NCBI GenBank assembly: GCA_037447605.1
Contig: CM074819.1
Location: 1,882,297-1,946,296, forward strand
Direction: 5' to 3'
Length of the DNA: 64,000 nt
From: Zygnema circumcarinatum SAG 698-1b
Lineage: Eukaryota > Plantae > Zygnematophyceae
Within the stretch, counting starts at the first letter, position 1; the number at the start of each line of letters is the position of its first letter. The notes beneath the pieces were generated by a model, which searched no databases, was not told where the DNA came from, and saw only the letters and a program-made list of their open reading frames with translations. Position numbers and translations under genes: made by a program. Below are positions 28,138 through 63,300 of this stretch, one piece after another.

Positions 28138-30641
28138 GGGTAGTGATATTTCCACCCCTTTTTTGGATCCAAACACCCCTTCCCGGCCGGGCAGATTTCA
28201 AAAAGGATTAAAAACGGAAAATGCTTTTTTCACACCTTTTTGGAATCGATACCCACCCTCCATCGGCAAATCATATTTTTGCGAAACAAGGAAAATGATA
28301 ACCCGTCAACCCATTTTGAATATCCCGCCTACTGAATTTTTTTTCACGCGTGCGGTCAATCGCAGCCGTCGATTCCCTCGCAGATCGCAACACGGCAGAT
28401 CACTATTTGATCTGCAGCCGGGCTCGGTCACAGCGAATGGCACTTGCCCACGTATCCCGCCAAAGTCGTCTCAAAAGTTTGTCCGTACAAATGTGGTACG
28501 GTCGCAACTTTGAGGAACCCAAAATTTCATACATTGAGAGCTTGAACCAATCAAAAATTTCCACGTCGATATGTATCACGTGGCAGAAGTTGATTGGCTG
28601 GAAGCAACGTGGCGAATCTGAGGCCAGGGCGCGCGGCACTGGCGGCGGAGTCCCCGGTTTTGAGCGGGACTGGTGGCGCTTTCCATTCAGTTGAGATCAG
28701 GCCCGGCTTCAGAGTCGGGCGGTGATCTCCGTGGTGGATCTCCGAGGGAAGTGCGACAGCTGCGATGACACACATGTGAAGGACGGACACCAGAGCAATG
28801 CTCGTCGCGGGCGGACCTGTTGGTGCAGGGCCAGAGGGCAGACTTCAAGGAAGGGATAAATACATGCCCGGATGAAGCTCAAAACTTTCTTCATCTTCCA
28901 CTTGGGCCACATACCGCTTCCTCCACGATCTGCCTTCCATCCACCCCTTGCCAGGTGCGCACAGCGGAAACTAAAAGCGCCACCTACAAGAACACTTCAA
29001 CTCCTCCATGGTCTCGGCTCCTCAAGTCCACGCTCCTCCAATGATCTCCTCGTGTGGAGCAACACACCGCCCATACAATGGTCGCCTCCACTCATCCACC
29101 ACGTCAATCCAACACGAGGACTCACATGACAAATGATGCAGTAGTAAGGAGAAAGCCCACGGCCCCAAAACTCCTTAAACTTCATGAGTGTAATACAAGC
29201 TCTTCTAAGAAATCTACATAATCCCTTATGCTAGATTCTCCTCCTCACATGAGCGCTATCCTATCCTCTGATAGACAGCCTACACCCCAACTGCAGTAGC
29301 CAAGCACTAACTGCCTCCATGAACTCCTCCTCTACCTCAACACATGAGGGACACATCATCTAACTTCTTCACTAAAGCTTAGCATGATGAGAGCTAGTTC
29401 CTTTCACGACCTTCATACACAAGGCCGGACTCCTCTAGGCCTCAGCCTCTGCCTACTCTTCCTAACACGAAGGTTGAGCAGCATAACATTCAGAGAGAGT
29501 AAGTTGAGCGAGTGAGTTTGCTCCCTTTTGAACAACAATGGCGATGTGACGTGACACAAGTTGTCACGTCACGGCCGGCCCTTGCATCCGGCAAAGCGGC
29601 GCACCCAATTAGCGACCTACGATAGTGGTCCCGTAAACCTATAGTGGCACCGACCTACGCTTTGCCCAGCCGTACAGTTTCACCAAGCGGCGGGTCCCCT
29701 TTTTGGTCCCTTCTCACTTTTCCGGCAGCCGACCTTTCTTCCGTACGCTCAGACCCGCCGACCCACTACCGAGTGGTCCACGTGGCGTGGCCTGACTCGT
29801 CACCGACTTCCTGAAGCGCCTCCACTGACGCTTCACTCCGCCGCTTCGCGCACCGCCTCAAAAGTCCTCTAGTTGTGCCATGTGTCGCGCGCTCCGTACT
29901 CCGCCCTCGCGCCGCGACCAATCAGCGCACTCCGTCATCTCACATATTCTCCACCGACATTGCCGAACCATGCGTCACGTCACGCATAGAGACGAGCCGC
30001 GATTCGCGTGCTGTCGCGACCAATCATGTCGCTTCACGCAAATCCGCCTCTCGCGCTTCCAAATCTCCGCGTCCGTCAACTTCCGCGTCGTCCGTACAAT
30101 TCGCGCGCCGTCCGTACGGCCGCGCTCCAAATCCGTCCAGGCGCACTCCGCGCGCCCCCTTTGGTTCGATCTAAGTCAAGGCCGCAAACCTACGACCCTA
30201 GACTATTCCTAGACCTGCCGTACCGTGCCCTAACGATACGGGCACCACCCATGTTAGGTCCATTACCGAATCACTCATGCATGACATTGTCCCTACACCA
30301 AAACATTGATGTCCCCGACAACATTCATGCTAGGAACTAAGTACCAACAACTTGATGTACCTCATACATCAACAGGACCTTCCGCTCCGAGCGGATTCGG
30401 GCAGGCAGATATTTCTTTCCCTCAAAAAAAAAATTCAGGGAGGCGGGATACAGTATTCAAAATGCAGTGACGGGGTATCATTTTCCTTGGTTAGCAAAAA
30501 TAAAATCAGCCGACGGAAGAAGGTGGGTATCGATTCCAAAAAGGTGTGCAAAAAGCATTTTCCGTTTTTAATCCCTTTTGAAATCTGCCCGGCCGGGAAT
30601 GGGTGTTTGGATCCAAAAAAGGGGTGGAAATATCACTACCC
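28138..30641. mobile_element. Non-autonomous DNA transposon with ~205-bp TIRs (Mutator/foldback-like), interrupted by a solo LTR
   Basis: TIRs GGGTAGTGATATTTCCACCCC... (28138-~28343) and ...GGGGTGGAAATATCACTACCC (~30424-30641). Flanking direct repeat TAAAAAAT (28130-28137; 30642-30649). No transposase ORF. Confidence 0.8.
28818..30374 (-). mobile_element. Solo LTR of the copia-related family (1557 bp)
   Basis: TGTTG...CAACA termini with 5-bp TSD GGACC (28813-28817; 30375-30379). Shares GGAGAAAGC..AAAACTCCTTAA and the TGACGTGACA..TGTCACGTCA palindrome with the copia LTRs at 37926 and 60394. Confidence 0.85.
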
Positions 30642-37925: not shown

Positions 37926-40900
37926 TGTTGAAGGAGGGAACATCTCGCTGCTTCCGGCTCCACCTCGCGTGTCGCCCTCCACAGGAACTCGTGTTCCCAC
38001 CGATGAAGACATTTCCACTCTTGCACTCTCAAAGCTCTATCTCACAATTCACTCATCGCCCATAACTACAGAATGAACACCAGAGACAAGCACAGCGGAA
38101 ATCAATCGAGAGAAGTGTAGGAGAAAGCTCACGGCTCTAAAACTCCTTAATAAATGTCTTCCCACATGAAAGTTCACTTCCCACCCTTTGAACCTATCTT
38201 CTCTTACTCACTACCTCACAACACGAGCAAGGCAGCCTAGCAACACGAGCTGGCACAGAATGAGAGACAGACTAGATTACCTACCAAACACACAACACAC
38301 GCTATATACTATATGGCGTTGTGACGTGACACACATGTCACGTCACGGCCGCCATAGCTGGCCCTTGCATTCGCAAAGCGGCGCATCACAATAGCGACCC
38401 ACGGGTAGTGGTCTCCGGAAACTACGACGACACTGACCTATTTCTGTCCCTATCTGTACCAGCTGCTGCGGCCTACCTTAAAGACTTTTTGCCGACTCCT
38501 TCGCTGGATTGTCGAACTGAATGGGCCCACCAGGAAGCGGCCTATGCGGCGCCTGCGCGGGATCGCCGCTGACATTCTTTGCCGCTTCGTGCCACTGATG
38601 CACTCGCGGCCTCGCCTGCCGCCGTGTCCAACTCACTTTGCGCACCCGCACTGGACGCCGCTTTCTTCGCGCCAGCGCCGGCCAGGAAATCAGCTTGCGC
38701 GCTCTCCAAGTTACTGCGTGGATCAATCAGACCTCGCCCATCCACATCCGCCTGCCAGCTCATCACAACTCTGAGCTGTCACTGCTATCCTTACTCATAC
38801 CAGGAAGTTCCCATGCTCAGATGACACCAAAATGAGTGTGATTATGAAATGTTAATGATCACATGAACAGCATATTCCCCTCTGGGTTTAGTCTCTCAAT
38901 GGTTTGCAGCTGTGGAGCAAGCTGCTTATTCACCATACTGTTTTCCCTAAATCTCTCTTACATATCTGCATGCTGTGTTCACTTCCAACGAACTTCACAA
39001 CGATCATCCCTTCCTCCACCAACTCTCGCACATAGTGATACTGCACTCTGATGTGCTTGGTCCTCTTGTGGAACACTGGATTTTCCACCAAGGCAATGGA
39101 CGACCGGGATGTCCTCGCGGAATGTAGCTACCTGCAGCTGCGCCTCAAGCACTCCCTCGGGAAATGCTCAAACCACACTCCCTCTCCTCTCGCCGCACGC
39201 AGCCCCCCCATGTACCGCCTCGACAAGCTTGGATAACGCTTATTGAATCTTGAAGCTTGAGTTTCCAATGATGGCTCTTCCTCGCCCATTCAGAATACGT
39301 AACTCGGAAAGCGATCTTGACAAAGTGTCCACTACCACCCCAATCTGAATCTGCGTAACCAATCACACCATTCGCCCCTCTCTCATAACTGGCGTCGCAT
39401 CTGTTCTCTGCACATACCTCGGCACATTATCTCTTTCACGCTTCTAATGTTCGTCTCCGGATTCTCCATGAACTGACTTGTCGCGGCTCACGGCCAAGTC
39501 CCGGCTGCACTCACCCACGTACATGAGACTTCCGAGCAATAGGGGATATCCAGGGACGCAAGACTGTGACATCCGCCTGCATCAGATCCGGCGGGCGGCT
39601 TGTTCCTTCGGTGTCGCGCCCGACCCCCATCGTGGGCTGGTGTACCTGCCCAAGTAATCCCTCCATGTGAAATCTCGCAAGGACATCCATCGTGCATTCT
39701 TTTGACTCAGAAGAGGCTCGTCTGCCCCCTTCAGCTGAATCCCTAACAGATACATAATGAGGTCGTCAACGTAGATCCCAACGTACATGAGATCCTCCCC
39801 CTCTCCTTGTCGGTAGACGGAATGATCCGTCTCAAATCGCGCAAATCCGTTCCTCCTGAGAAGATCGTCTATCTTCTCGTACCATATCCTGGGCGCCTGT
39901 TTCAGTCCGTACAGGCTCTTCACTAAGCGACAAACGAGATGCTCTTGACCGGGAGCCACCTTTCCTTCGGGCTGCTCCATGTAGATCTCCTCGGTGAGAT
40001 CTCCGTACAAAAACGCGGTCTTGATGTCCAACTGATGGACATGCATCCCCTCCGCAGCTGCAATCGAGATCAAGGCTCTAAGGGAGTTGAATTTCACCAC
40101 TGGGGCAAAGGTCTCCGTATAGTCAACTCCGTACTTCTGGCTGAAGCCTTTCGCCACCAGCCGCGCCTTGTAGCGGTCGACGCTCCCGTCAGCTTTCCGC
40201 TTCACCTTGAACACCCACTTGCATCCAATGGCTTTCCTTCCTCTCGGCAGCTTCTGCAGTCGCCACGTGCCATTCTCAATCAGACTATCCCATTCGCTGT
40301 CTATCGCCGCTCTCCACTTATCTCCATCGACCCCATCATGAGCCTCCATAAACGTTTGCGGCTCGGTAATCATGAAGCAATGAGCAACACCTGCGAGATC
40401 AGCGGAGTCTGAAGGCACTCTCTCTTGCACCAGGTTATTTTGTGAGGGCCTGAAACGATCAGGCTTCCTCACCGCTTGGTGCTCCTCCACTCCCTTGCAC
40501 TCTCCCACTTCTGGATGAGACATGCGAACAACCCAGGCATGTTTGATACATCGCGTCTCTCTTCCGTGTCAGTCATCAGATTGTCGAGGCAGGCTGTTTG
40601 CCCAAGTCCTCCGCCTGAAGAACACATGCGTGTGTATTGAGCGTCTCTAGCCGAGCCTTGCGGTTCTCCCGCATGCGGCGCTTCGGGTTCATCTCCGACT
40701 GCCGCCTCAGCGCTTGGTGCTGCCTCTGGCTCAGCTCCTCCGCTCTCTGGCGTGCTGATCTCCTCCAGGGCCGGGACTGGGGAAGCATCGTCGCCTCCTC
40801 CACTAGTCTCCACATCCTCGTACACAATTTCCAAATCTGCCTTCTGGGGTCGGGTCTCACCTAGTCGTGCCACCGCCCCTCTCTCATCCACCGTGACATC

Positions 40901-43862
40901 CCTCGAACTCTGAACTTCATTCAATCGGGGGTTCCACACCCTGTAGGTGCGACTGTCAGCGTTATAGCCGAGAATGTACCCTTCTACGGCTCTCGGGTCG
41001 AACTTCCTCTTCTGCTTCGCTTTCGGAACTGTCGACCAACACCGCGCTCCGAATGCCTTCAGGTGAGTGACCGTGGGTTTCCTCCCACTCCACACCTCCT
41101 CAGGAACCTGATCCTTGAGGACAGAGGATGGACATCTGTTCCTAAGGTAAGCGGCAGTCATCACTGCCTCTCCCCAAAAAGATGCCTGAAATGGGGAATC
41201 AATCAGCATGGTCCGCGCCATGTCCCCCAACGTCCTGTTAACTCTCTCAGCAGCTCCATTACTTTGAGGGGAATAGGGAGCAGAGAATTCATGCCTTATG
41301 CCTTGAGACTTGAGATATTCACCAAACTCCTTGGACTTGAACTCGCCTCCGTTATCTGAACGAAGAGTCTTCAACTTGTGTCCAGTCTCTCTCTCCATCT
41401 GAATCTGCCAATCTCTGAAGGCTCCGAATGCCTCAGACTTGTTCTTGAGAATCTTCACCCAGATCTTCCTCGAAAAATCGTCGAGGAAGGTGATGAAATA
41501 ACGGGCTCCTCCTGTTGTTGTCGGTGTCACGGGGCCACAGAGGTCGGTATGGATTAACTCCAACTTCTCCTTCGCATGGAACGCCTCTTCTCCACTCCTC
41601 GAAAACGGTCTCCTACGCGCCTTCCCCTCCACACACTCTTTGCAAAGTCCGAGCTCCTTCTCAACTACGTCAACATCCAACCCACGGACCAGCCCCTTTT
41701 CTGCCAGTTGCTGCAAGCCCCTATGGTTGAGGTGACCAAGTCTACGATGCCAGAGATTCACTGCATCTTCAGCCACGGCCATGACTTCCTCGTCTTCTTC
41801 TCTCCTATAGTGAAGGTAATACAACCCTCCTTTCTCAAACCCCTTAAACAGCTGCTTCCCCGTCACAAGGTGAGTAGCTACACATGACTTCTCCCTGAAC
41901 ATGACCTCATACCCCTTCTTACATACTTGGCTAACAGACATAAAATTCTGTTTCAGCTCAGGGGTGTGAAGGACGTCACCGATGCAGAGGCGCTCTTGCC
42001 TCTTTTCTTCGTAGATCACGGAGCCGTCTCCGAGGATCATCTTGACTTCACCTCCTTTTGCGTGCTGCGCATTTCCTCTCGGCAGCTGATGAACGGGAAC
42101 GTGTCCTCTCCAACGTGTCCAACGTGGAAAACATTTGCTTGTCGCCACACATGTGTGTGGAAGCGCCAGAGTCGATCAGCCATGGCCGCTTCAAATCCTG
42201 AACCTGGATCTTCCCAACAAAGTCAGAATGTTCAGTCACCATGAGGTTGGTCTCCACCGCCACTCTGCAATCTGCACTCTTGTGGCCACGCTTCTTGCAC
42301 TTGAAGCAGGTCCTCCCTTGAACCCCTTCCTCATCCTTCTTGATGATGACGAGCGCCTCCTCTCGACTCGGGTCTCTTGTTTGTAATAGTCCTTTGAAGA
42401 GTGGCCGCTCTTGCCACATGGTAGCAGATTCCGAGGATGCTCTCTCGACTGACTTCACCTGCTTCTTCTGCTCTACGTGCAGTGTGAGCACCTTCTCCAC
42501 CTTCGAACGTCTTGAACTGAGTCCTCCTCCTTGATCCTTCGCTTCACTTGCTCAAGGGTCATTTTCGAATTTGTTAGGACGGTTCTAAGAGCCGCAACTG
42601 CTACATCAAAACGGGCAGGCAGTCCCCCCAGAAACTGGCTAATCTTATGATCACTCTCTAATGGTTTCTGAAGGGCTATGAACCTTTCCATCAGAGTATC
42701 AAACCTGACCATATATTCGCTAAGTTTCTCATCTGAGGACATCTTCATTTTCCCTAGCTGCGTGTAAAGGTTGACAATCGTCACATTATCCTTTACATCA
42801 TACATCTCTTCTAAGCACCTCCACATCGCATGTGAGGTCTTGAGATCATACAGCATAGAGGAGGGACTTCCCCTCACACTCATGACGATCTGGGTAAGGG
42901 CCTTGTTGTCCTTGGCCTTCCATCTGGTGAGCGCCGTGTCGAACTCCGACTGCTGCTCCGCCGTGGCTCCCTCCGGTAGCACTGGTGCCTTGATGGTGCC
43001 GTCAACGTACCCCAACAGCCCCTTGCCCACGAGCAAGGGGACCAGCCGCCACCTCCACCCCTTGTAGTCCGATCCATCGAACGCCGGGATGCTGAACTTC
43101 ACGTGGTCCTCGTCGCCACCATTGGCTCTGATACCACTTGTTGAAGGAGGGAACATCTCGCTGCTTCCGGCTCCACCTCGCGTGTCGCCCTCCACAGGAA
43201 CTCGTGTTCCCACCGATGAAGACATTTCCACTCTTGCACTCTCAAAGCTNNNNNNNNNNCCAAACACACAACACACACTATATACTATATGGCGTTGTGA
43301 CGTGACACACATGTCACGTCACGGCCGCCATAGCTGGCCCTTGCATTCGGCAAAGCGGCGCACTCAGAATAGCGACCTACGGTAGTGGTCTCGTAAACCT
43401 ACGACGACACCGACCTATTTCCGTCCTATCTGTACAGTGCCGCCGTTCGTCGGGTACCCTTAACATTTTCCGGCCGCCGACTCCTTCGCCGTACGCTCGA
43501 ACCAACGGGCCCACTCAGTAAGTGGCCCGCGTGGCTGGCGATTAAATTACGCCCGACATTCCTTAAGTAAACGGCGTCCTTAAATAGCTGGCGCTCCAGC
43601 GTCTTTCAGCGCCCGTGTCCAATCATCACCGGCGCATCCGTGCAGCGCGCCGGCGTCAGTAGCGGCGACAATCCAGCTCCAGCGTCTCAATTCTGTAGCG
43701 ATCAATCCGCGGCCGTTCATCACATCCGCCCCGTAGCGCCACACAGGGAACTTAAGTTGCTGACGTCATCGTGACTCATACTAGGTAGTTTCCATGACTG
43801 AGTACCACAACCAAGTTAGTGTGTACTATGTAATGCTTAACTATCATACACTAACACTAACA
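37926..43862 (-). mobile_element. Full-length but degraded Ty1/copia retrotransposon inserted into gypsy gag
   Basis: 5' LTR 43862-43139, PBS TGGTATCAGAGCC (43136-43124), gag (FDGSDYKGWRW), CCHC, protease WLIDSGAS, HHCC (LWHRRLGH..CKEC), rve (IHTDLCGP, LRSDNGGEF, NGAAERVN), RT (YKARLVAKGFSQ, LDIKTAFL, LYGLKQAP, YVDDL), RNase H GYADSDW, PPT ~38873-38883 and 3' LTR ~38872-37926. TSD TGTTC at 37921-37925 and 43863-43867. Confidence 0.93.
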
Positions 43863-44199: not shown

Positions 44200-47100
44200 T
44201 CCTCTCTGACCCGAATCAGTCAAAGTGTGTACAGCAATACGCGAGCGCTGCCGCATTCCGCGCGCGCAGGCGTGGCGCAGTCCCCATGCATTGGTGCACC
44301 ACGGACCCTGGGCACACGGCCGGGGTCCAATTGTCAGTGCGTTCGGTGCCCAGCGGTAATCCGGTAATGTGCGGGCGGCATGCCGTTCGAGGTCCGGCCC
44401 GGAGTCCGGTGGCGTGGCTGGATTGGTCCCGGTATGCGTATCTAATGTCCCAGTGTGCGGAGGGGGACCTTGGCGGGTGATGTGGGGCGCACCGTGACTA
44501 TATGGTGCCCCCACGTGTGAACCAGTTCTTACGGTTCGAACCTAGGACCTCCGTCGTCCTATAGGGTATCCGATGCCCTAACCATTAGGTAATGCATTGG
44601 ATGGAAACATAAGGCCACGCCGGGCTTTAAGTAATCCTTCCCCCTTGGGGTGACTGTAGCGTTTCGCTACATTACTACCCCCCTGTGAGAATGTGACAGC
44701 GATTCACATGTGTGGGGTAATGAGGGCAGCTCGTAGTTTGGGCGGCACACGTCGAACTCTGCGTGATAGGAAGGCTCAGCAATAATCCCGGTCAGTCAGC
44801 TTTCGAGTTGCGGCGGGGACAGCTCAGGAACCCCAGGGCCGGTCTCGCCCCGCTCTCCTGCGGCCTACGCCTCCTAGTACAAGTTGATGAGCTCCTGGCA
44901 ATTGGTTAAGTTGCCCTCGGCTTCCCATGTGCTATGTTCAACCCCATAGCCCAACCATTTCACGAGGTATTCGTGACGGGAAGAACGACCCTTTCTCACA
45001 ATACGATGGGCTTGAATGGTTTCAACTTCATACTCAAGTTCACCTTCAAGTTCCANNNNNNNNNNCTTACGTGTTCCGCCATAAGCTTTGAGTCTCAAGT
45101 TCGCCGTACTTAGCAACACTTCATCGCCCTCATTGAAAGTGAGTTGGGTACGGTGACGGTCAACATAGGCCTTTCGTCGCGACTGGGCCGCTAGCAGGGT
45201 CTGCCGTGCCCTCTGCAGCGCCTTAGACATTAGCCGGACAAAAGATCTGACTGCGGGAGGTTGGGTCCCATCAGTCCCTCTCTACTTCCAAGGGTCGGGG
45301 GTTCTGTGGACGCCCATGTTCCACGGATCAGGGGGCTGATCCCTTGGTTGCAGGGGATTTAGAGGATGCTGGCCAAAGTTCAAGAAGAAAGGGGTGGTAC
45401 CAATGGACTCCTGGTAAGCATTATTGATGGCATACTCACGCAAAAGGCAGCGTCCGCCCATCCGGGTAGGTCCCACGTAATGCCAGAGGTAATCCTCCAG
45501 GATACCTGTTCCACCCAACCCCAGTACCGCCATCAACTGCAGGGTGGAAAGATATACTGGGGGCCAGCTGAGCCCCACAATTTTGACACTTCAATCCAGA
45601 GATGGCCAATAAATCGTGGATCGCAGTCCAACACAATTTTGGCTGAAGACCATATGGCTCCACACTTTGTCGACATACAAGCCGTGGGCTGATAGACCCA
45701 GGCAAACTTAGTAGTTGGTGCAAAATGCACCGTCTTGCATGAGCCGATCAACAAAGACGAGGATGGAGTCATGCCCCCAAAATATAGCGGAAGCTGTGAT
45801 CAAGTCCATACCCACACTATCCTGTTGCGGAAAGGAGTGTGAGGGGTAGGCTCCACGGGGACACTGCAGGTGCGGGTTTGCTCGTGACAAGTTGGACAAA
45901 CGAGTACATGCCGCTTCACGTCCTCTCGGAGTCCAAGCCACCAGAACTCACGAGCGGTGCTCAGCGGGTGGCGCTTCCCATGTGAGTCTCGATGCGGAGG
46001 ATCATGTAAGCTCACTCAGATCAGGAACTTCCGTGCGGTCCGGCCTAAGACACAACCAACTCCTCACATAGTACCCAAAATCCATCCTTGAGCACCACTT
46101 TGTCCTTATAGCCATTACCTTGGCCATCCAGGAACAAAGGATCACCAGTATACCCCTCCTGAATCATCCGTTTGAGATCAGAGAGAGCAGGAGGGTCGAC
46201 TGCGTCACTGGTGGAGGGATCTATGACAAAGCATGCTGGAGACGGAAACTCGGGGTTGGCCAGCCCCTCACCTCCGTCCCACCAACACTCGGGGGTGGCG
46301 GGCGCACCATGCGGGGCAGGGGATGCCGAGGTGTGTGAGTGGGTTTGCTACATTCGAGCCTTGTGGGCCGATCGCCCGTTGGCAGTCGAACCTCGGAGGG
46401 ACTTCGATTAGCGTGCCTGCCGCCTAGACAGGGTCTGTTGGGTTGAGAGGAACGTCAGCGGGCGGTGGTCAGTGACCAGCGTGACCGCTTTCGCCCCCTC
46501 CAAATAGCACCGCCATGTCCTCAGGGCGTGGACTACTGCAAGCAGTTCCTGTTCTGTTGCAGAATAGTTGCGCTCAGCGGGATTCATTTTGCGACTTTCA
46601 TACGCCAAAGGTTGGCCATCTTGAAACAAGACGGCACCCAAGGCGAATCCCGAAGCATCACAAACCACTTCATAAGGTTTGGACGGGTCCGCTAAACGGA
46701 GAGTGGGTGCGGTAACAAGTGCATGGCGTACGCCCTCAAATGCTTCCTGACATTCAGGGGTCCATGCAAAGGGGACACCGGAACGTGTCAAATTAGTCAA
46801 GGGAGTAACCANNNNNNNNNNACAAGATGGGCGCCCCAAAGGGGCTCTGACTGGGTTCTATCCAGCCTTTGTCCCGTAAATTAGTCAACTGCTTACGCAT
46901 CTCTTCGGTTTCTTTTGGGCTTAACCGATAAATCGGCCGCCAAGGCGGCTTTTGCTCAGGCTCTAGAGGGACTGTGTGCCCCACTCCTCTAGATGGTGGC
47001 AACCCTCTTGGAAGGTCGTCAGGGAAGACATCCCTGAATTCATCCAACAAAGGTTGGAATTTGGGTGGAACGGCCGAGAGCACATCCGTAGATGTGATCT

Positions 47101-48690
47101 GCCACTCCTGATCTTCGTCATGCACATCCTCAGTGGCTGCCATGACACGCACCATGAACAAGGTGCAACCCTCCTTAACTGCTTTGGCCAGTTGCATGGC
47201 CGAACAGAGATAAGGGTCATCCAACTGTTTGGAAACAGTGGATGTGGATCTGCCAGGGTGCAAGGTTATGCGCCTGTCACCACTGTGCAGAACGCAATGG
47301 GGGATGGAGAAATCGAGTTGGGCCTTGACCATGGTTAACCAAGCACTCCCCAAAATCACATCAGTTCCAGGGGCCAGCTGTGTCAAAAGACACTTCACTC
47401 CCCCGGAGTAGGATTGGAGCTTGATCTTGAGGGTGACGCTTCCAGAGATCTGGCCCTTGCGTCCATCCCCGAAAGTAACACTTTCGGTATGGGGATCTAT
47501 GGTCAATTCCAACCTCTGGGTGAATGCAAAACTAACGAAGTTAGCATCTACCCCAGTATCTAGCAGTATAACTGCTGGGTGGCCATTGGCTAACCCGGTG
47601 AAAGTCATTGCACGATGGGCAAGATGGAACATGGAGCGCACTAAATGCGAGGGGTGAGGACGAGCCGTCCTCCACACCAAGGTGTAGGGTGATCCGACCA
47701 GCAAACTGGCGGATCCTTCCATCATTTGCACTAACTTGTGCCCTTTCCTCAATTGTTTCACCAACCGCCAAGTGGCGTTGGGAAAGGTGCGAGCTGCCAT
47801 GTGTTGAGGAACCAGCACATGCAGCCCAAGGACATGGGAGGTGTTTCCCATGACATGCAAAGAATCTATGGCACATTGCATGAGAACATCATCGCCCATG
47901 ACATTGAGGATAAAGACATGCCAATCACCATTCATCACTACATCCATAAACCTAGAAGGAGTCACTACAGTGGCAGGGAAGAGAGAAATGGACGCAGGGA
48001 GTGCATCACACGCAAAGAGGTCGTGCATTCCCAAAGGTCTGCCCATCAATTTAAGAATGTCCAAGGTTCTAAGAAACAAATGTCCCCTAGCCCTGGCGGC
48101 AGCTTCCATCCTTTCCCCTAACCTAGCATGTCCACCAGCAACGACCCCTAAGCTGCTGGTGGGTTGGGGTTTTCCGGCCCCTTGCCCTTCTTGTCCTTGG
48201 CGTTAAGAGGGCAATCCCGGGCCTTATGCCCCTCTTTCCTGCATCGGAAGCACTTGTTCTCCCGCTGCATCCGCTCCATCTCTTCCGGAGTCAACTTCTG
48301 CGGCCGTGCAGGGGCTGGGCGGGCAGTCGTTTGCGGCTGTTTCCGCTTGTTCTTTCCTGCCGGTTTGGCAGGAGCAGAGGGTCCCGCCTTCCATGACCCT
48401 GTCACATCTCCCGACCTCTGCTGGGGTCGGGAAGGGCCTGCATCGCCTGCAGGGGCGGTGTCCAGCTGAATGGCTGCATCAAAGTACAGCTCGGAGTCAG
48501 CGGGGTCCCACNNNNNNNNNNTGGTGCCCCCACGTGTGAACCAGTTCTTACGGTTCGAACCTAGGACCTCCGTCGTCCTATAGGGTATCCGATGCCCTAA
48601 CCATTAGGTAATGCATTGGATGGAAACATAAGGCCACGCCGGGCTTCAAGTAATCCTTCCCCCTTGGGGTGAATGTAGCGTTTCGCTACA
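44200..48690 (-). mobile_element. Ty3/gypsy chromovirus family B copy 1 (gapped): LTR start, gag end, extra domain, PR, RT start, RNase H, integrase, chromodomain, PPT, 3' LTR
   Basis: LTR starts TGTAGCGAAACGCTACA at 48690 and 44671. PPT 44685-44672. CCHC (CFRCRKEGHKARDC), LLDTGVDANF, VCDASGFALGAVL, NYSATEQELLAVV and chromodomain EYLVKWLGYGVEHSTWE. The left boundary is uncertain because of poor sequence. Confidence 0.85.
44528..44595 (-). promoter_or_regulatory. tRNA-like Pol III type-2 promoter module in gypsy B LTR (also at 48547-48614 and 50621-50688)
   Basis: Minus strand TACCTAATGGTTAGGGCATCGG...GGAGGTCCTAGGTTCGAACC: D-arm/A-box-like hairpin and a canonical B-box GGTTCGAACC. Confidence 0.6.
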
Positions 48691-49097
48691 GGATCCACCA
48701 CCACTAGAAGGTGCGCCACCCTCGTTGGGGTGACTCCCCCCTGTTGCAGAGACAGGGGGTCCAGACGACCGTCCGCTGCTTGAGGCAGCAGGTTGGGTCG
48801 TAGTTCTCGTGGCATTTGATGGTGCTACCCCATCAGCTACCCCAGGAAAATCTTTCCTTGCCTTAATAGCTTCGGCCTGGGCAATGTTGGACGTACCTTT
48901 AGCTCCCGTCAAATTCTCCATGGCGAGGGCTAAATCCCCTCGCAGGTCCGCAGGGAGCTTGTCCATCAACTTCTGAATTCTCCTCCGTCGGGTGGTCCTC
49001 TTGGTCCTCAGGGCTGGAAGGCGGAAAAGGCGGAAATTCTGGAAATGCCACCATTGCACAAACAATCCTAGCAAGAGAAGCACAATCTCTGATACCA
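48691..49097 (-). mobile_element. PBS (tRNA-iMet) and gag N-terminus of a gypsy element, probably the 5' part of family A copy 1
   Basis: TGGTATCAGAG at 49097-49087. Peptide ...QPAASSSGRSSGPPVSATGGSHPNEGG is similar to family B gag QPAAGSSRQKSGPPGFSTGGSHPHGGG. Interrupted by the B LTR at 48690. Confidence 0.7.
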
Positions 49098-49098
49098 A

Positions 49099-49229
49099 TG
49101 TAACAAACCACTGCCTCCAGCAGGGTTCGAACTCAGGACCTCCCGGTATTCACCTAAGTGCTTTACCATTAAAAGGCAACCGCGGATGTAAGTACTAGGT
49201 CATACACCCCATGTATACCGTTCGTTACA
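49099..49229 (-). mobile_element. 131-bp mini-LTR (TGTAAC...GTTACA) containing a tRNA-like module
   Basis: Preceded by PPT GGTGGGGAGGAA (49241-49230) and followed by a PBS. Internal TGCCTTTTAATGGTAAAGCACTTAGGTGAATACCGGGAGGTCCTGAGTTCGAACCCTGCTGGAGGCA (49178-49112). Confidence 0.8.
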
Positions 49230-49401
49230 TTCCTCCCCACCTAAACCGTGCTCGTCCTCGAGCACAACACTCAAGGGTTTTCACGAGCGCGTTCAAGCTC
49301 CTTCATCACATGGCAGTATGTACGGTTCAGACCCTCTGGCCAACCATACCATGCTCAGAGATCATGGTGTTTTTAGGGTGGATTGCAAATACCCGTCCTT
49401 A

Positions 49402-49828
49402 GGCTTTGATACCAAAATGTAGCAAGCCTTGAGCACAACACCCAAAGCCTGCTAGAAACTAAATCACTTAAACGTGTAATGCTGGTTTTTGGAACGATTG
49501 CAAGTGCCCCCTCCAGGAAGCCCCCTCTTGCATTCATCCCACGCCCCTTATACGCTCCCCCCGTCGAACCCTTTACCAGCGTAAGGGACCGGGAGCAGGG
49601 CTAGCCAATGGCGCCATGCCACGTGGCCAATCGGCTGGTCCAATGCCAGTTGTAGAGAGGCCAGTCACGAGCCAGCATTTCTCAATGTGTGACCGTGACG
49701 CGTCACTCCGCATAGCGACCGGCGGTCGTGGTCGCGTACCGATCTCGAATGCGACGCGCGACGCCGCAGAATCACCGTCAGTCCATACCGCCCGTACGAC
49801 GGTACGGATCCGTACGGATACACCGTAC
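49402..49828 (-). mobile_element. 3' part of a long gypsy LTR (...GCTACA) plus PBS TGGTATCAAAGCC
   Basis: LTR end at 49418 and PBS at 49414-49402. Contains TATA-like CGTATAAGGG, CCAAT boxes and a G-box. Probably the distal part of the B-type LTR that starts at 50764. Confidence 0.65.
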
Positions 49829-50387
49829 TGTTGGTGCAGCGGCCTCCGTGCGAGGTGCTGCCACTTCTCCTCTGCCCTCGGTAGAGCTCGACATCTTCAA
49901 TGACTTGATCAACCACACTCCTCAAGGATGTAGACACACACACAAGTCTGAATGCAGTAGAACAGATCAGCGGAAAAGAGAAGATGTAAGGAGAAAGCCT
50001 CCAGCCTAAAACTCCTTAATATAAAGATGAATACAACTTGACAACTCTAGAGCCAAGCTTCAAGCACCTAAACTCAAGCTACGTGATTACACCACCCCAC
50101 TACAAGCTGAACACTTCCCACTATCTTCTAAGCCCAAAGCAAGATAGCCTCACTACCTACGTGAGTCCCGAGAAGGTTAACTCCTTCAAAACAGACCTCT
50201 ATCATATACAACAATGGCCGTGTGACGTGACACAAGTTGTCACGTCGCGTCCGCCATTGCAAACCCATGCACAATCTCGGTGGGCGCACTCAAGAATAGC
50301 GACCAGCTAGTGCGCCTCGTAAACCTACGACAGCACCGACCTAGTTCTTGTCTATTCGTACATCTGTCCGTACAGTTCTGCCGCTTC
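49829..50387 (-). mobile_element. Copia-family LTR variant inserted in the gypsy LTR (repeated at 51183-51771)
   Basis: Begins TGTTGGTGCAG and shares AAAACTCCTTAAT and TGTGACGTGACACAAGTTGTCACGTC with the other copia LTRs. Confidence 0.8.
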
Positions 50388-50397
50388 NNNNNNNNNN

Positions 50398-51182
50398 GTC
50401 CGATTGTCAGTCCGTTCGTAACAACGGTAACCCGTAACTGTACGGACGACTTGCCGATTCCAAAAGGGGGATCTGGACCGCGGCCCGAGATCCAATCGCG
50501 GGACCGGATTGGTCCTGTGGTGGCGTTAGTCCCCAATCCTCCCTTATGCCGAGGAGGGGACCTTGGCGGGTGATGTGGGGCGCACCGTGACTATATGGTG
50601 CCCCCACGTGTGAACCAGTTCTTACGGTTCGAACCTAGGACCTCCGTCGTCCTATAGGGTATCCGATGCCCTAACCATTAGGTAATGCATTGGATGGAAA
50701 CATAAGGCCACGCCGGGCTTCAAGTAATCCTTCCCCCTTGGGGTGAATGTAGCGTTTCGCTACAGGATCCACCACCACTAGAAGGTGCGCCACCCTCGTT
50801 GGGGTGACTCCCCCCTGTTGCAGAGACAGGGGGTCCAGACGACCGTCCGCTGCTTGAGGCAGCAGGTTGGGTCGTAGTTCTCGTGGCATTTGATGGTGCT
50901 ACCCCATCAGCTACCCCAGGAAAATCTTTCCTTGCCTTAATAGCTTCGGCCTGGGCAATGTTGGACGTACCTTTAGCTCCCGTCAAATTCTCCATGGCGA
51001 GGGCTAAATCCCCTCGCAGGTCCGCAGGGAGCTTGTCCATCAACTTCTGNNNNNNNNNNCTCCGCATAGCGACCGGCGGTCGTGGTCGCGTACCGATCTC
51101 GAATGCGACGCGCGACGCCGCAGAATCACCGTCAGTCCATACCGCCCGTACGACGGTACGGATCCGTACGGATACACCGTAC
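50398..51182 (-). mobile_element. Duplicate contigs of gypsy B LTR and gag fragment
   Basis: 50596-51049 is essentially identical to 48522-48975, and 51060-51740 to ~49706-50387. Both are bounded by 10-N gaps. Confidence 0.75.
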
Positions 51183-52496
51183 TGTTGGTGCAGCGGCCTC
51201 CGTGCGAGGTGCTGCCACTTCTCCTCTGCCCTCGGTAGAGCTCGACATCTTCAATGACTTGATCAACCACACTCCTCAAGGATGTAGACACACACACAAG
51301 TCTGAATGCAGTAGAACAGATCAGCGGAAAAGAGAAGATGTAAGGAGAAAGCCTCCAGCCTAAAACTCCTTAATATAAAGATGAATACAACTTGACAACT
51401 CTAGAGCCAAGCTTCAAGCACCTAAACTCAAGCTACGTGATTACACCACCCCACTACAAGCTGAACACTTCCCACTATCTTCTAAGCCCAAAGCAAGATA
51501 GCCTCACTACCTACGTGAGTCCCGAGAAGGTTAACTCCTTCAAAACAGACCTCTATCATATACAACAATGGCCGTGTGACGTGACACAAGTTGTCACGTC
51601 GCGTCCGCCATTGCAAACCCATGCACAATCTCGGTGGGCGCACTCAAGAATAGCGACCAGCTAGTGCGCCTCGTAAACCTACGACAGCACCGACCTAGTT
51701 CTTGTCTATTCGTACATCTGTCCGTACAGTTCTGCCGCTTCGCCAGCCCTTTTAGCGACTTTTGTCCGCCGNNNNNNNNNNGCGTCTCCACCATGGCTTG
51801 TTCGAGGAAGGTGGATGACATGGAGCTCACGGTCCGCCGCCTGGTGGACACGCTCCAAATGGAGTTCCGGGGCCTTGCGGACAGGCTCCGGAGGATCGAG
51901 GAAGGTATGCCCCGAACCCCCCCTCAGGCTGTAGAGGCAGTAGATGCAGCAGGTCCTGGGGAAGGGGTTAGGCAAACCACTCCGGTAGCGTCGTCTGTCC
52001 CGACGCCCCAACCGGCTGCCGGAAGCAGCCGGCAGAAGTCCGGACCCCCTGGTTTTTCCACGGGGGGAAGTCACCCCCACGGGGGTGGCGAACCACCCAG
52101 CAGTGGGGGACCCCCGTCGGGGGCAACTGCTGGGGGCGGAGGAGATCCCAGTCCTCGGACTGCTCCCCCGCAACCTACTGAGGATGCCCGACGGAATCGG
52201 GCCAAGGTGGCCCCTCTNNNNNNNNNNGATGCAGGCCCTTCCCGACCCCAGCAGAGGTCGGGAGATGTGACAGGGTCGTGGAAGGCGGGACCCTCTGCTC
52301 CTGCCAAACCGGCAGGAAAGAACAAGCGGAAGCAGCCGGAAACGACTGCCCGCCCAGCCCCTGCACGGCCACAGAAGTTGACTCCAGAGGAAATGGAGAA
52401 GATGCAGCGGGAGAACAAGTGTTTCCGCTGCCGCAAGGAGGGGCACAAGGCCCGGGATTGCCCTCTGAACGCCAAGGACAAGAAGGGCAAGGGGCC

Positions 52497-55500: not shown

Positions 55501-56386
55501 AAGTGTTTGAGGTACTGAGGACGAACCGGTTTTATGCCAAGAGAAAGAAGTGTCACTTCATGCAACGTGAGTTGCTCTATCTTGGGCATATTCTCAATGA
55601 TCAGAGCCTTCGGCCAGATCCTGCCAAGGTTTCTGCGGTAGAAACTTGGGCGCCACCGACTGACTTACATTAGTTGCGGTCATTCTTAGGATTTGCGAAT
55701 TATTTTCGTAAATTCATCCAAGGGTTTAGTAAGCTGGTTACTCCCTTGACCAATTTGACACGTTCCGGTGTCCCCTTTGCATGGACCCCTTAATGTCAGG
55801 ACGCATTCGAGGGCGTGCGCCATGCACTTCTTACCGCACCCACTCTCCGTTAAGCGGACCCGTCCAAACCTTATGAAGTGGTTTGTGATTCTTTGGGATT
55901 TGCCTTGGGTGCCGTCTTGTTTCAAGATGGCCAACCTTTGGCGTATGAAAGTCGCAAAATGAATCCCGCTGAGCGCAACTATTCTGCAACAGAACAGGAA
56001 CTGCTTGCAGTAGTCCACGCCCTGAGGACATGGCGGTGCTATTTGGAGGGGGGCGAAAGCGGTCACGCTGGTCACTGACCACCGCCCGCTGACGTTCCTC
56101 TCAACCCAACAGACCTTGTCTAGGCGGCGAGCACGGTTAGTGCGAGGATTCCTCCAAAGATTTGGTACCCGAGTGGGTCTCGGCGGAAGAAATTTGAATG
56201 CTTAGCAAACCGCGGCGGGCAGCCTCGGCATCTTGCTGGATGTTGGCTTCGTCATTTCGGTGTTGGTGGAGCGAGGATGAGCCAGGAGTGGTACAGCCAG
56301 CCCCGGTTTCCGTCTCCAGCGTAGCTTTGTCATAGATCCTCCACACCCGGTGGCCAGCGGTCGACCTCGCTCTCGATCTCAAACGG

Positions 56387-58024
56387 ATGATTCAGGAGGG
56401 GTATACTGGTGATCCTTTGTTCCTGGATGGCCAAGGTAATGGCTATAAGGACAAAGTGGTGTCTAAGGACGGATTTTGGTACCACGGCCAGCAGTTGGTC
56501 GTGCCCAAGACCGGGACTGTACGGCAGCTCATTCTGAGTGAGTTACATGATCCTCCGTACCGAGGTCACATGGGAGTTGCCAAAACCCGTGAGGCACTGC
56601 TCCGAGAGTTCTGGTGGCCTGGACTCTCGAGGGACGTGAAAGCGTATGTACTCGCTTGTCCAACTTGTCAACGAAACAAACCCCGCACTGGCAGGATCCC
56701 TGGCCAGCTGCAACCCCTCACACCTCCTTTTCGGAAATGGGACAGTGTGGGTATGGACTTGATCACAGATCTTCCTGTGACACCTCGGGGGCATGACTCC
56801 ATCCTCGTCTTTGTCGATCGGCTCAGCAAGATGGTGCATTTTGCACCAACTACTAAGACCGCTGGGGCCGACGAGATTGCACGGTTGTATGTTGACAAAG
56901 TGTGGAGCCAGCATGGTCTTCAGTCAGAAATTGTGTCTGACCGTGATCCACGATTCACCGGCCATTTTTGGACGGAAGTGCTCAAAATCGTGGGGACCAA
57001 GCCGGCCCTGAGTACAGCTTTCCACCCGCAAACCGATGGCCAGACGGAACGGGTGAACAGGATCCTGGAGGATTACCTCCGGCATTATGTGGGACCTACC
57101 CCGGATGGGTGGGATGAACTGCTCCCAGTGGCTGAGTATGCCATCAATAATGCTTACCAGGAGTCCATTGGTACCACCCCTTTCTTCTTGAACTTTGGCC
57201 AGCATCCTCTAAATCCCCTGCAACCAAGGGATCAGCCCCCTGATCCGTGGAACATGGGCGTCCACAGAACGCCCGACCCTTGGAAGCTGAGAGGGACTGA
57301 TGGGACTCAACCTCCGGCGGTCAGATCTTTTGTCTGGCTAATGTCTAAGGCGCTGCAGAGGGCACGGCAGACCCTGCTAGCGGCCCAGTCGCGACAAAAG
57401 GCCTATGCTGATCGTCACCGTACCCAACTCACTTTCAATGAGGGCGACGAAGTGTTGTTAAGTACGGCGAACTTGAGACTCAAGGCTTATGGCGAAACAC
57501 GTAAGTTGTGGCCCCGCTTCATCGGACCCTTCAAGGTCGTGAAGCGCATCAATGAGGTCGCTTACCGGTTAGATTTACCATCTCACATGAAGGTGCATCC
57601 GGTCTTTCATGTGGGCTTGCTAAAGGTCTACCGTAGCGATGGGAGGATCCAGCCACCTCCCCCACCAGTGGAACTTGAAGGTGAACTTGAGTATGAAGTT
57701 GAAACCATTCAAGCCCACCGTATTGTGAGAAAGGGTCGTTCTTCCCGTCACGAATACCTCGTGAAATGGTTGGGTTATGGGGTTGAACATAGCACATGGG
57801 AAGTCGAGGGCAACTTAACCAATTGCCAAGAGCTCATCAATTTGTACTGGGAGGCGCAGGCCGCAGGAGAGCGGGCGAGGGCGGCTCGGGGGATTCCTGA
57901 GCCGTCCCCGCGCAACTCGGAAAGGGACTTGACCGGGATTATCGCTGAGCCCTCCCGGTTATCACGTAGAGTTCGACGCGTGCCGTTGAAACTACGAGCT
58001 GCCTTTACTACCCCACACACGTGA
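56387..58024 (+). CDS. Gypsy integrase-chromodomain portion of pol (intact 545-aa frame)
   Basis: HHCC, DDE core, FIGPFKV, HPVFHV and chromodomain YEVETIQAHR...EYLVKWLGYGVEHSTWE. Confidence 0.88.
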   Translation: MIQEGYTGDPLFLDGQGNGYKDKVVSKDGFWYHGQQLVVPKTGTVRQLILSELHDPPYRGHMGVAKTREALLREFWWPGLSRDVKAYVLACPTCQRNKPRTGRIPGQLQPLTPPFRKWDSVGMDLITDLPVTPRGHDSILVFVDRLSKMVHFAPTTKTAGADEIARLYVDKVWSQHGLQSEIVSDRDPRFTGHFWTEVLKIVGTKPALSTAFHPQTDGQTERVNRILEDYLRHYVGPTPDGWDELLPVAEYAINNAYQESIGTTPFFLNFGQHPLNPLQPRDQPPDPWNMGVHRTPDPWKLRGTDGTQPPAVRSFVWLMSKALQRARQTLLAAQSRQKAYADRHRTQLTFNEGDEVLLSTANLRLKAYGETRKLWPRFIGPFKVVKRINEVAYRLDLPSHMKVHPVFHVGLLKVYRSDGRIQPPPPPVELEGELEYEVETIQAHRIVRKGRSSRHEYLVKWLGYGVEHSTWEVEGNLTNCQELINLYWEAQAAGERARAARGIPEPSPRNSERDLTGIIAEPSRLSRRVRRVPLKLRAAFTTPHT

Positions 58025-58175
58025 ACGAGGGCGTTCACATCCTCACAGGGGGGGAGTAATGTAGCGAAACGCTACAGTCACCCACGGGAGGTGTACTTAG
58101 GGCGCGCTCCGTCCTAGTACTCTCACCCCGGGCGCGGGCCGAGTGGTCAAGGCGCCGGGGACCACNNNNNNNNNN

Positions 58176-60393: not shown

Positions 60394-63300
60394 TGTTAGT
60401 GTTAGTGTATGATAGTTAAGCATTACATAGTACACACTAACTTGGTTGTGGTACTCAGTCATGGAAACTACCTAGTATGAGTCGCGATGACGTCAGCAAC
60501 TTAAGTTCTGAGGTGCGCTTGTAGCGCGCGCGGGCGGAGTGTGGATGAACGGCCGTGATTGATCGCGGCGGTAACTTGGAGACGCGCGGAGCTGATTGGT
60601 CGCGGCGCTGACGCGAAGGCGCGTGGTACGGATGCGCGAAGATGATTGGACACGGCGCGGGCGCGAGGACGCGGAGTGCGCGTCGGTGACGCGAAGCGAC
60701 GAAGGAATGTCGGCGACGAATCGCGCAGCGCCACGTGGGCCACTTACTGAGTGGGCCCGTTGGTTCGAGCGTACGGCGAAGGAGTCGGCGGCCGGAAAAT
60801 GTTAAGGGTACCCGACGAACGGCGGCACTGTACGGATAGGACGGAAATAGGTCGGTGTCGTCGTAGGTTTACGAGACCACTACCGTAGGTCGCTATTCTG
60901 AGTGCGCCGCTTTGCCGAATGCAAGGGCCAGCTATGGCGGCCGTGACGTGACATGTGTGTCACGTCACAACGCCATATAGTATATAGCGTGTGTTGTGTG
61001 TTTGGTAGGTAANNNNNNNNNNGCCTTGCTCGTGTTGTGAGGTAGTGAGTAAGAGAAGATAGGTTCAAAGGGTGGGAAGTGAACTTTCATGTGGGAAGAC
61101 ATTTATTAAGGAGTTTTAGAGCCGTGAGCTTTCTCCTACACTTCTCTCGATTGATTTCCGCTGTGCTTGTCTCTGGTGTTCATTCTGTAGTTATGGGCGA
61201 TGAGTGAATTGTGAGATAGAGCTTTGAGAGTGCAAGAGTGGAAATGTCTTCATCGGTGGGAACACGAGTTCCTGTGGAGGGCGACACGCGAGGTGGCGCC
61301 GGAAGTCGCGAGATGTTCCCTACGTCAACAAGTGGTATCAGAGCCAATGGTGGCGACGAGGACCACGTGAAGTTCAGCATCCCGGCGTTCGATGGATCGG
61401 ACTACAAGGGGTGGAGGTGGCGGCTGGTCCCCTTGCTCGTGGGCAAGGGGCTGTTGGGGTACGTTGACGGCACCATCAAGGCACCAGTGCTACCGGAGGG
61501 AGCCACGGCGGAGCAGCAGTCGGAGTTCGACACGGCGCTCACCAGATGGAAGGCCAAGGACAACAAGGCCCTTACCCAGATCGTCATGAGTGTGAGGGGA
61601 AGTCCCTCCTCTATGCTGTATGATCTCAAGACCTCACATGCGATGTGGAGGTGCTTAGAAGAGATGTATGATGTAAAGGATAATGTGACGATTGTCAACC
61701 TTTACACGCAGCTAGGGAAAATGAAGATGTCCTCAGATGAGAAACTTAGCGAATATATGGTCAGGTTTGATACTCTGATGGAAAGGTTCATAGCCCTTCA
61801 GAAACCATTAGAGAGTGATCATAAGATTAGCCAGTTTCTGGGGGGACTGCCTGCCCGTTTTGATGTAGCAGCTGCGCTCTTGGTGAACCGGCCCTAATGA
61901 AATTCGAAAATGACCCCTTGAGCAAGTGAAGGAAGGATCGGCGAGGAGGACTCAGTTCAAGACGCTGGCGCACCCCAGGAGAAGGTGCTCGGCCGCACAC
62001 ACGCCAAGACCGGGAGGAGGCGCTGTGAAGCCAGACCTAGGAGAGCCGGGCCCCGCGAAAGGTGCTACACGTGCGGTGGCAAGAGCGGCCACTACTCGGC
62101 AGACTGTTACAAGAACAAGGGGACCCCAGATCGGGGAGGAGGCGCTTCGTCATCCATCAAGAAGGATAAGAAGGGGTTCAAGGGGACCTGCTTCAAATGC
62201 AAGAAGCGTGGCCACAAGAGTGCAGATTGCAGAGTGGCGGTGGAGACCAACCTCATGGTGACTGAACATTCTGACTTTGTTGGGAAGATCCAGGTTCAGG
62301 ATCTGAAGCGGCCATGGCTGATCGACTCTGGCGCTTCCACACACATGTGTGGCGACAAGCAAAATGTTTTCCACGTTGGACACGTTGTAGAGGACACGTT
62401 CCGTTCACTCAGCTACCGGAGAGGGAGTGACAGTCACGAAAGGAGGTGAAGTCAAGATGATCCCTCGAGACGGCCCGCGATCTACTGCAAGAAAAGAGTA
62501 AGAGCGCTCAAGACGGGTGACGTCCTTCACACCCTGAGCTGAAACAGAATTTTATGTCTGTTAGCCAAGTGTGTAAGAAGGGGTATGAGGTCACGTTCAG
62601 AGAGAAGTCATGTGTAGCTACTCACCTTGTGACGGGGAAGCAGCTGTTTAAGGGGTTTGAGAAAGGAGGGTTGTATTACCTTCACTATAGGAGAGAAGAA
62701 GATGAGGAAGTCATGGCCGTGGCTGAAGATGTAGTGAATCTCTGGCATCGTAGACTTGGTCACCTCAACCATAGGGGCTTGCAGCAACTGTCAGAAAAGG
62801 GGCTGGTCCGTGGGTTGGATGTTGACGTAGTTGAGAAGGAGCTCGGTTTTTGCAAAGAGTGTGTGGAGGGGAAGGCGCATAGGAGACCGTTTGCGAGGAG
62901 TGGAGAAGAGGCGTTCCATGCGAAGGAGAAGTTGGAGTTAGTCCATACCGATCTCTGCGGTCCCGTGACACCGGCAACGACAGGAGGAGCCCGCTACTTC
63001 ATCACCTTTCTTGACGATTTTTCGAGGAAGATCTGGGTGAAGATTCTCAAGAACAAGTCTGCGTATCTGGAGCCTCAGAGATTGGCAGATCTGTATTGAG
63101 AGAGACTGACACAAGTTGAAGACTCTTCGCTCAGATAACGGAGGCGCAGTTCCAAGTCCAAGGAGTTTGGTGAATACCTCAAGTCTCGAGGCATAAGGCA
63201 TGAATTCTCTGCTCCCTATTCCCCTCAAAGTAATGGAGCTGCTGAGAGAGTTAACAGGACGTTGGGGGACATGGCGCGGACCATGCTGATTGATTCCCCA

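Follow-up and report, generated by a model that had tools for sequence, protein, structure and literature searches.

The window analyzed here, a stretch of 64,000 nucleotides from Zygnema circumcarinatum SAG 698-1b (contig CM074819.1), lies on a gappy scaffold with plant-type telomere-like repeats, and nested gypsy and copia fragments fill it from 32 kb onward. The focal feature is a 131-bp LTR, hereafter the mini-LTR, which is listed below together with its surroundings.

49099..49229, minus: 131-bp LTR of a Helenus-type TRIM with TG..CA ends, a PPT before it and a PBS after it
49160..49176, minus: D-arm and degenerate A-box of the tRNA-like module (tRNA HMM match 49170-49113), with none of the listed variants inside
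49124..49141, minus: variable loop AGGTC and B-box
49171..49174, minus: sole T4 run of the 317-nt TRIM unit, a candidate Pol III terminator
49230..49415, minus: 186-bp non-coding TRIM interior, from the PBS (49414-49403) to the PPT (49242-49230), with internal variants
49087..49097, minus: second PBS and crossover region; the 317-bp unit is absent here in other copies
48691..49086, minus: leader and gag N-terminus of a chromovirus of the B/C clade (38% identity over 95 amino acids to the gag of element C, pairwise E=2e-16)
49418..49829, minus: 3' part of a long LTR ending in GCTACA, joined directly to the PBS and gag leader in contigs

The gag fragment is interrupted at 48690 by an LTR of a second type (family B, described below). 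Duplication in the assembly is common, with near-identical contigs on either side of 10-N gaps (53622-54871/54887-56137 and 32442-33495/33534-34602). It was also noted that the copia-type LTR pieces at 49830-50387, 43260-43862, 60394-61330, 37926-38861, and 29532-29856 share a block of ~150 nt with a palindrome, and that one such piece is seemingly inserted in the long gypsy LTR and another in the 3' LTR of family B. A near-perfect inverted repeat at 27579-27977 (arms of 180 nt, 97%, spacer of 39 nt, with longer flanking symmetry) is possibly a foldback element.

A tRNA-derived module in a 131-bp LTR

As previously described, the mini-LTR (49229-49099 on the minus strand) is immediately preceded by a PPT and immediately followed by a PBS of the tRNA-iMet type, and it contains a D-loop AATGGT, a variable loop AGGTC, and the B-box GTTCGAACC at class-I tRNA spacing. 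A tRNA HMM was built from 54 class-I tRNAs (of 63 distinct tRNAs) from two bacterial genomes and searched against the 64-kb window, where the mini-LTR and 3 modules of family B took ranks 1 to 4 among 8 matches. The mini-LTR module ranked first with 14.1 bits (E=0.002), as compared to a maximum of 9.8 bits in 40 shuffles, and the family-B modules scored 7.7 bits (E=0.2), within the range of the shuffles. A loose A..B pattern was found 4 times in the window versus a mean of 0.5 and a maximum of 3 in 100 shuffles. A strict A/B pattern occurred 4 times versus 0 in 100 shuffles, but this count was discounted because the pattern was derived from the finding itself. The motifs are real and tRNA-derived, as the preliminary description held. 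No tRNA-like module was identified in 6 other LTR pieces of the window.

A functional tRNA gene was considered and rejected, in line with the earlier view, as no cloverleaf with acceptor, anticodon, and T stems was recovered by ARAGORN, Rfam, or folding. ARAGORN reported 0 tRNAs with default settings and only noise with relaxed settings that allow introns, and the relaxed Rfam search that had been proposed as a check gave no tRNA match at E<=10 in 34 kb plus 2 short stretches. Two structural details had to be revised. The D-stem as paired earlier was slipped by one position relative to the tRNA numbering; in register, the mini-LTR has C, C, and T at tRNA positions 8-10 and thereby lacks the 5' half of the A-box, which is degenerate in all 3 LTR types (mini, B, and C). 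The TGCCT and AGGCA segments, previously described as able to pair at the module ends, do pair in the predicted fold, yet not in the register of an acceptor stem, and shuffled sequences fold just as well as the module (z 0.04).

A comparison of the conservation of the box motifs with that of their surroundings had been proposed as a check. Among the variants listed from public contigs, which amount to at least 17 sites and require 80% likeness for a contig to be placed, 0 of 17 sites in the mini-LTR fell within the 21 box positions (P=0.04), as against 2 of 17 within the 35 positions of the wider arm regions (P=0.11). Since the P values are calculated from the variants listed, box conservation in the TRIM LTR is suggestive only.

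The usual form of the element was deduced from public contigs of 4 runs (X1, X2, X5, and X6; 4 samples from 3 studies) placed on positions 48960-49480. Contig joints led from 49401-49415 back to 49111-49134, and the loose ends behind 49415 read as the end of the mini-LTR in 3 runs, the joints showing the same in all 4. Furthermore, one X5 contig contained 2 LTR copies located 340 nt apart. A TRIM of 131+186+131 nt follows from these joints and loose ends, the copy in the window having a single LTR. The summed depth over LTR and interior was 1,385 to 334,000 in X1, X2, and X5 versus 329 to 862 on the gag leader, and in X6 it was at least 4-fold that of the gag leader, although these depths are not copy numbers. 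Several variants of the TRIM interior were seen in the contigs, and the loose ends included TRIM LTR variants that begin like the LTRs of families B and C. The usual form is LTR-PBS-186 nt-PPT-LTR, an abundant non-coding TRIM of ~450 bp. Judged by its structure, it appears to be a new Helenus-type TRIM, which adds one more element to a known group.

The order of features in the window, where a PBS, a leader, and gag come after the mini-LTR, would also fit the 5' LTR of a coding chromovirus whose gag comes next. This we consider very improbable. In 4 of 4 runs, from 3 studies, the gag leader is directly contiguous with the long LTR and its PBS, the 317 nt being skipped; the joint of the empty site (49085-49403, where 10 letters fit either side) was found in one contig per run at the full depth of the gag leader. 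None of the contigs listed joins the mini-LTR to the gag leader, none contains the TRIM/leader junctions of the window itself, and a PPT and TRIM interior precede the mini-LTR. As it is missing from the coding element in these runs, the 317-bp unit appears to have been recombined or mis-assembled into the chromovirus PBS in the window, either as a crossover of one 317-bp unit, which has the size of a one-LTR circle, or as an assembly chimera.

Homologous modules in the LTRs of coding chromoviruses

Modules related to that of the mini-LTR are located in 2 further LTR families of the window, here called B and C.

44533..44671, minus: start of a family-B 3' LTR after a chromodomain and PPT (module 44592-44533); same order in a 414-nt X6 contig
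48522..48690, minus: start of a family-B LTR inserted in gag (module 48611-48552)
50398..50764, minus: duplicate of the LTR start at 48690, likely an assembly duplication (module 50685-50626)
56336..58024, plus: open integrase-SH3-chromodomain frame of element C, 562 amino acids
58060..58165, plus: start of a family-C 3' LTR after a PPT, with a tRNA-Leu-like D-arm at 58137-58156 and the B-box in an N gap

The modules reported earlier are thus present at these positions, but the 3 family-B modules represent at most 2 loci, since the segments 48522-48975 and 50596-51049 are 100% identical over 454 nt, the segments 49706-50387 and 51060-51741 are likewise 100% identical to each other, and all are located beside N gaps. 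Two of the 3 are probably one duplicated locus or contig.

Both B and C contain the Pfam domains RVT_1, Integrase_H2C2, SH3_Tf2-1, and Chromo, with the chromodomain after the integrase; B and C are chromoviruses by their Ty3/gypsy order and chromodomain. The integrase frame of C is open over 562 amino acids, but there are stops in the RT and in B, in addition to assembly gaps. Among the 120 database relatives listed for the C integrase, the best were 56% to 65% identical, and a Volvox africanus protein 49%. The earlier claim that LTRs of a chromovirus lineage contain the module therefore stands for B and C, whose LTRs follow integrase-chromodomain ORFs, but not for the mini-LTR, which is the LTR of a TRIM.

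The 48690 and 44671 LTRs differ at only 2 of 208 nt (44464-44671 compared with 50557-50764, the duplicate). Beyond these 208 nt, the 99% likeness of the 2 B LTRs drops to ~70%, which could mark a recombination breakpoint or a homogenized U3 head. The sequences preceding the B and C LTRs are 89% alike, and the first 24 nt of the LTRs are identical, after which they diverge, with the D-arm at LTR position 82 in B and 79 in C. From the D-arm onward, 17 of 28 positions are identical between B and C, versus 9 of 40 just upstream in an ungapped alignment (about half if gapped). We noted that the B and C LTRs (44655-44671, 48674-48690, and 58060-58076) start with a perfect 7-bp hairpin that itself has TG..CA ends; the 17-nt palindrome at the LTR start had 7 viral-contig matches, unrelated on inspection.

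Contigs supplied the letters of the C gap, with AGGTC and a B-box behind 58165 in X1 (12 contigs), X5 (3), and X2 (8). The C B-box is GGATCGAACC in X1 and X5, and the X2 consensus has one B-box base changed (8 contigs, agreement 0.88). In the gap-filled C module, the B-box is placed at the same spacing as in B, and 41 of 58 positions match between B and C without gaps (counted by eye). From position 26 to the T-loop, B and C measure 33 nt and the TRIM 27 nt, which makes the B/C spacing 6 nt longer than class I and equal to that of the tRNA-Leu of locus L226 (by eye). The C D-arm motif fell within an ARAGORN tRNA-Leu in 61 of 72 viral-contig matches, the others being one tRNA-Ser and 10 uncalled. 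The mini, B, and C LTRs align colinearly (p 0.001-0.004), and the chromovirus module, situated ~80 nt into the LTR, is homologous to the TRIM module.

Agreement among the loose ends before 58060 is low (0.46-0.49), as would be the case for the flanks of many insertions. In X1 and X2, the C module and the coding end ahead of the PPT have depths of similar magnitude. X6 gives no coverage of the C type, and its 414-nt contig continues into a B-type LTR. This continuity and depth indicate that the module is a regular part of the B and C LTRs and not a one-off insertion. A SINE insertion with its own TSD, which had been named among the findings that would overturn the LTR interpretation, was rejected, with no tail or TSD seen and the module located at a homologous place in 3 LTR families.

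A different possibility keeps the TRIM as a Pol III element but sees a mere passenger in the coding LTRs: template switching would have placed a TRIM LTR at the 5' end of U3, where it would have been copied along ever since without any use to the chromovirus. At the end of the first 157 nt of B, a motif terminating in CA can be aligned with the end of the mini-LTR, as in a whole TRIM LTR, and this, together with the mosaic LTRs (the breakpoint in the B pair and the parting of B and C after 24 nt), makes the possibility a serious one. Recombination between TRIM and chromovirus is also seen in the window itself, and chimeric LTR donation between TRIMs has been reported (PMC13570524). However, no PBS follows the CA-terminated motif in B, and both B and C have kept the D-loop, variable loop, B-box, and spacing while the upstream sequence diverged. 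Their spacing is furthermore unlike that of the TRIM, their A-box is without the T4, and AGTGGT is kept in all 3 of the loose ends listed for the C subfamilies. On balance, we regard capture as unlikely, although well worth keeping in mind.

The module had also been suggested to act at the RNA level, imitating a tRNA in priming or packaging. Both B and C are predicted to form a D-arm hairpin, and the start of the C LTR has a stronger fold than shuffled sequences (z -2.98), partly due to the terminal hairpin. In B, 6 nt in the loop of the anticodon region (44565-44572, minus) match the complement of the PBS, a feature similar in the TRIM and absent from C, which is probably due to chance. Set against these observations are the z values of 0.04 for the mini-LTR and -0.74 for the B module, the absence of a conserved cloverleaf, the broken T-stem and acceptor stem, one C subfamily that breaks a D-stem pair, and the PBS, which is an ordinary iMet PBS; in addition, there is no PBS complementarity in Helenus according to the account by Kojima (PMC10886601). 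A role as tRNA mimic has little support and is highly improbable.

Related chromovirus loci outside the window, 185 in total, had best matches of 32% to 54% identity, none being of the lineage in the window. Among 90 loci with a putative PPT+TG start and at least 200 nt, B-boxes in the first 350 nt were found 4 times in sense and 3 times in antisense, several of these crude LTR-start calls being wrong; a module is thus not general among distant chromoviruses. Two loci, L009 and L171, each contained 2 tandem A/B-type modules at the same LTR positions (L009:4490-4720 and L171:3270-3500), and they were the only ones to score among 9 LTRs with that PPT signature and at least 250 nt. The second L009 module was the top HMM match among all loci (E=0.026), the first L171 module had E=1.6, and the first module of each folds as D-arm and T-arm hairpins (z -3.75 and -2.97, respectively). 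Modules of this type were not found in the sister loci L003, L006, and L138, and the search for further L009-like elements returned L009's own contig and one weak match only. From their chromodomain and PPT, we take L009 and L171 to be land-plant Tekay-like chromoviruses. In an integrase tree of 41 rows, inferred without reference elements, the 2 were sisters placed far from the window element, which points to an independent gain of the land-plant Tekay-like modules. A tRNA-like, SINE-like piece was also noted in antisense inside another gypsy element (L150:1099-1160, minus).

Possible transcription and maintenance of the module

Transcription by Pol III had been proposed for the LTRs as a whole. 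For the coding chromovirus genomes it was rejected, because the interiors, with 8 T4 runs in B and 11 in C, show no depletion of such runs. These runs, together with a TATA-like box at 49552-49548 (minus) in the long LTR, 130 nt before the LTR end, suggest that the coding genomic RNA is likely made by Pol II, for which the box is the putative promoter. The B-type LTR start is tentatively linked to the long LTR end at 49418 by scaffold order and terminal repeats, and a test of distal LTR homology between them was not significant (score 39 versus a shuffle maximum of 43). A second B-box-like motif was noted just upstream of the TATA-like box (49562-49571, minus).

For the TRIM, Pol III transcription is plausible. 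The sense strand of the 317-nt unit contains one T4, located inside the A-box, whereas the B and C modules are without it and have their first T4 about 220 or 640 nt downstream. Our preferred reading, in which our confidence is slightly better than even, is that the 131-bp LTR is the terminal repeat of the abundant ~450-bp TRIM, that this TRIM is likely transcribed by Pol III, and that it is likely copied in trans by the neighboring chromoviruses that share its module. By analogy with Cassandra, the start and stop of transcription can be predicted. TFIIIC would bind the B-box in the 5' LTR, and Pol III would start 10-20 nt ahead of the A-box, near LTR position 34-47, partly read through the T4 inside it, cross the PBS, the interior, and the PPT, and stop at the same T4 in the 3' LTR, at LTR positions 56-59. 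The product would be an RNA of ~330 nt whose R region, at ~15-25 nt, would resemble that of Cassandra, and the common iMet PBS, PPT, and LTR termini would let the chromovirus Gag/Pol package and copy it.

Several observations do not sit easily with this reading. The Helenus A-box motif TRGCY occurs in none of the 3 LTRs, and a T4 so close to the start, at ~25 nt or less, should halt Pol III in the 5' LTR as well. Furthermore, the B module scores inside the shuffle range, the C B-box of X2 has a changed base, and the coding copies in the window carry stops. Alternatively, a single ancient SINE or tRNA insertion into an ancestral LTR may have left all of the modules as non-functional remnants, with Pol II serving both the TRIM and the coding elements. 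The degenerate A-boxes, the lack of Rfam and ARAGORN matches and of a significant fold, and the weak conservation statistics argue for such decay. Yet the mini-LTR consists of little beyond the module and is abundant nevertheless, the B-box and D-loop survive in 3 diverged LTR families, and the lone T4 is located at a Cassandra-like place. We consider the relic explanation improbable.

In the coding elements, the module occupies the 5' end region of U3, at a long distance upstream from the TATA-like box, and could not give rise to the genomic RNA. A B-box alone can bind TFIIIC, and tDNAs act as chromatin barriers. Under our preferred reading, the module in the coding LTRs may have persisted because a TFIIIC/Pol III site keeps U3 accessible or protects the Pol II promoter against flanking heterochromatin, although we rate the chances of this part just short of even.

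A broader scenario can be outlined, which we offer tentatively and consider rather doubtful as a whole. At the 5' edge of their U3, a lineage of coding algal chromoviruses would maintain a TFIIIC/Pol III cassette of tRNA origin, which would serve as a built-in barrier or a helper promoter in the face of the heterochromatin that the chromodomain integrase targets, and the Helenus TRIM would have arisen by deletion and become a complete Pol III replicon by gaining the A-box T4, the land-plant Tekay cassettes being independent. If true, TRIMp3 elements would have an origin other than SINE insertion, plus a named helper. The pairing of TRIM and chromoviruses also makes it testable whether heterochromatin-targeting retrotransposons carry their own tDNA-type barrier.

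Comparison with known systems

No account of tRNA modules in the LTRs of coding chromoviruses was found in the literature searched, Repbase entries and most subscription papers being outside the search. The coding elements resemble the Chlamyvir-like algal chromoviruses in having a Ty3/gypsy integrase with an aromatic-cage-type chromodomain (PMC6317226). The window integrase was placed near the Volvox protein and apart from the Tekay-like loci, the clade name being given by likeness as the tree is without reference elements. In contrast to the elements in the window, the Chlamyvir-like elements have no tRNA-like LTR module in the available part of their description (PMC6317226). Pol III units with A/B boxes are also known from the U3 of foamy viruses, which are coding LTR elements transcribed by Pol II, but these retroviral units encode short hairpin miRNAs and have terminators of their own (PMC3993851), whereas the module described here is tRNA-derived and its first T4 is located about 220 or 640 nt downstream.

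Cassandra and the TRIM in the window have in common, as predictions for the latter, a Pol III-type internal promoter in the LTR, a terminator inside a small-RNA-derived domain, and a short R, which in Cassandra is 18 nt, with the terminator inside the 5S domain (PMC10886601; PMC12486564; PMC10853983). They differ in that Cassandra is 5S-derived, with demonstrated transcription and no helper identified in these accounts, whereas the TRIM is tRNA-derived.

The closest likeness is to Helenus or TRIMp3, non-coding TRIMs with tRNA-derived LTR sequence that were already described (Kojima 2024, PMC10886601). With its 2 LTRs, PBS and PPT, and tRNA-derived LTR, the TRIM appears to fit Helenus by structure, and it is similar also in its non-coding form of <1 kb, its short tRNA-like LTR, and the lack of a functional tRNA. 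Of the boxes typical of most Helenus families (TRGCY and YGG in the A-box, GGTTC in the B-box), it has YGG but not TRGCY, and its B-box has an A in place of the first G of GGTTC, with a G variant in one X6 contig. Helenus-1_SMo from Selaginella (supplement of PMC10886601) has a 120-bp LTR, an 85-bp interior, a similar PBS, and a close stretch of variable loop and T-arm (by eye). Selaginella is the only plant host of Helenus according to Kojima (PMC10886601), whereas the host here is algal.

Kojima also remarked in passing that tRNA-like parts exist in "not a few" Repbase LTRs, of which the TRIMs alone were kept for analysis, and argued for helpers that are transcribed by Pol II and would hardly have LTR sequence in common with the TRIM (PMC10886601). 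No TRIMp3 is known to have a helper that shares its LTR. The likely helper here is instead a gypsy chromovirus that shares both the 5' part of the LTR and the module, and the presence in one genome of a TRIM and coding relatives with homologous modules makes the origin of the TRIMp3 promoter testable.
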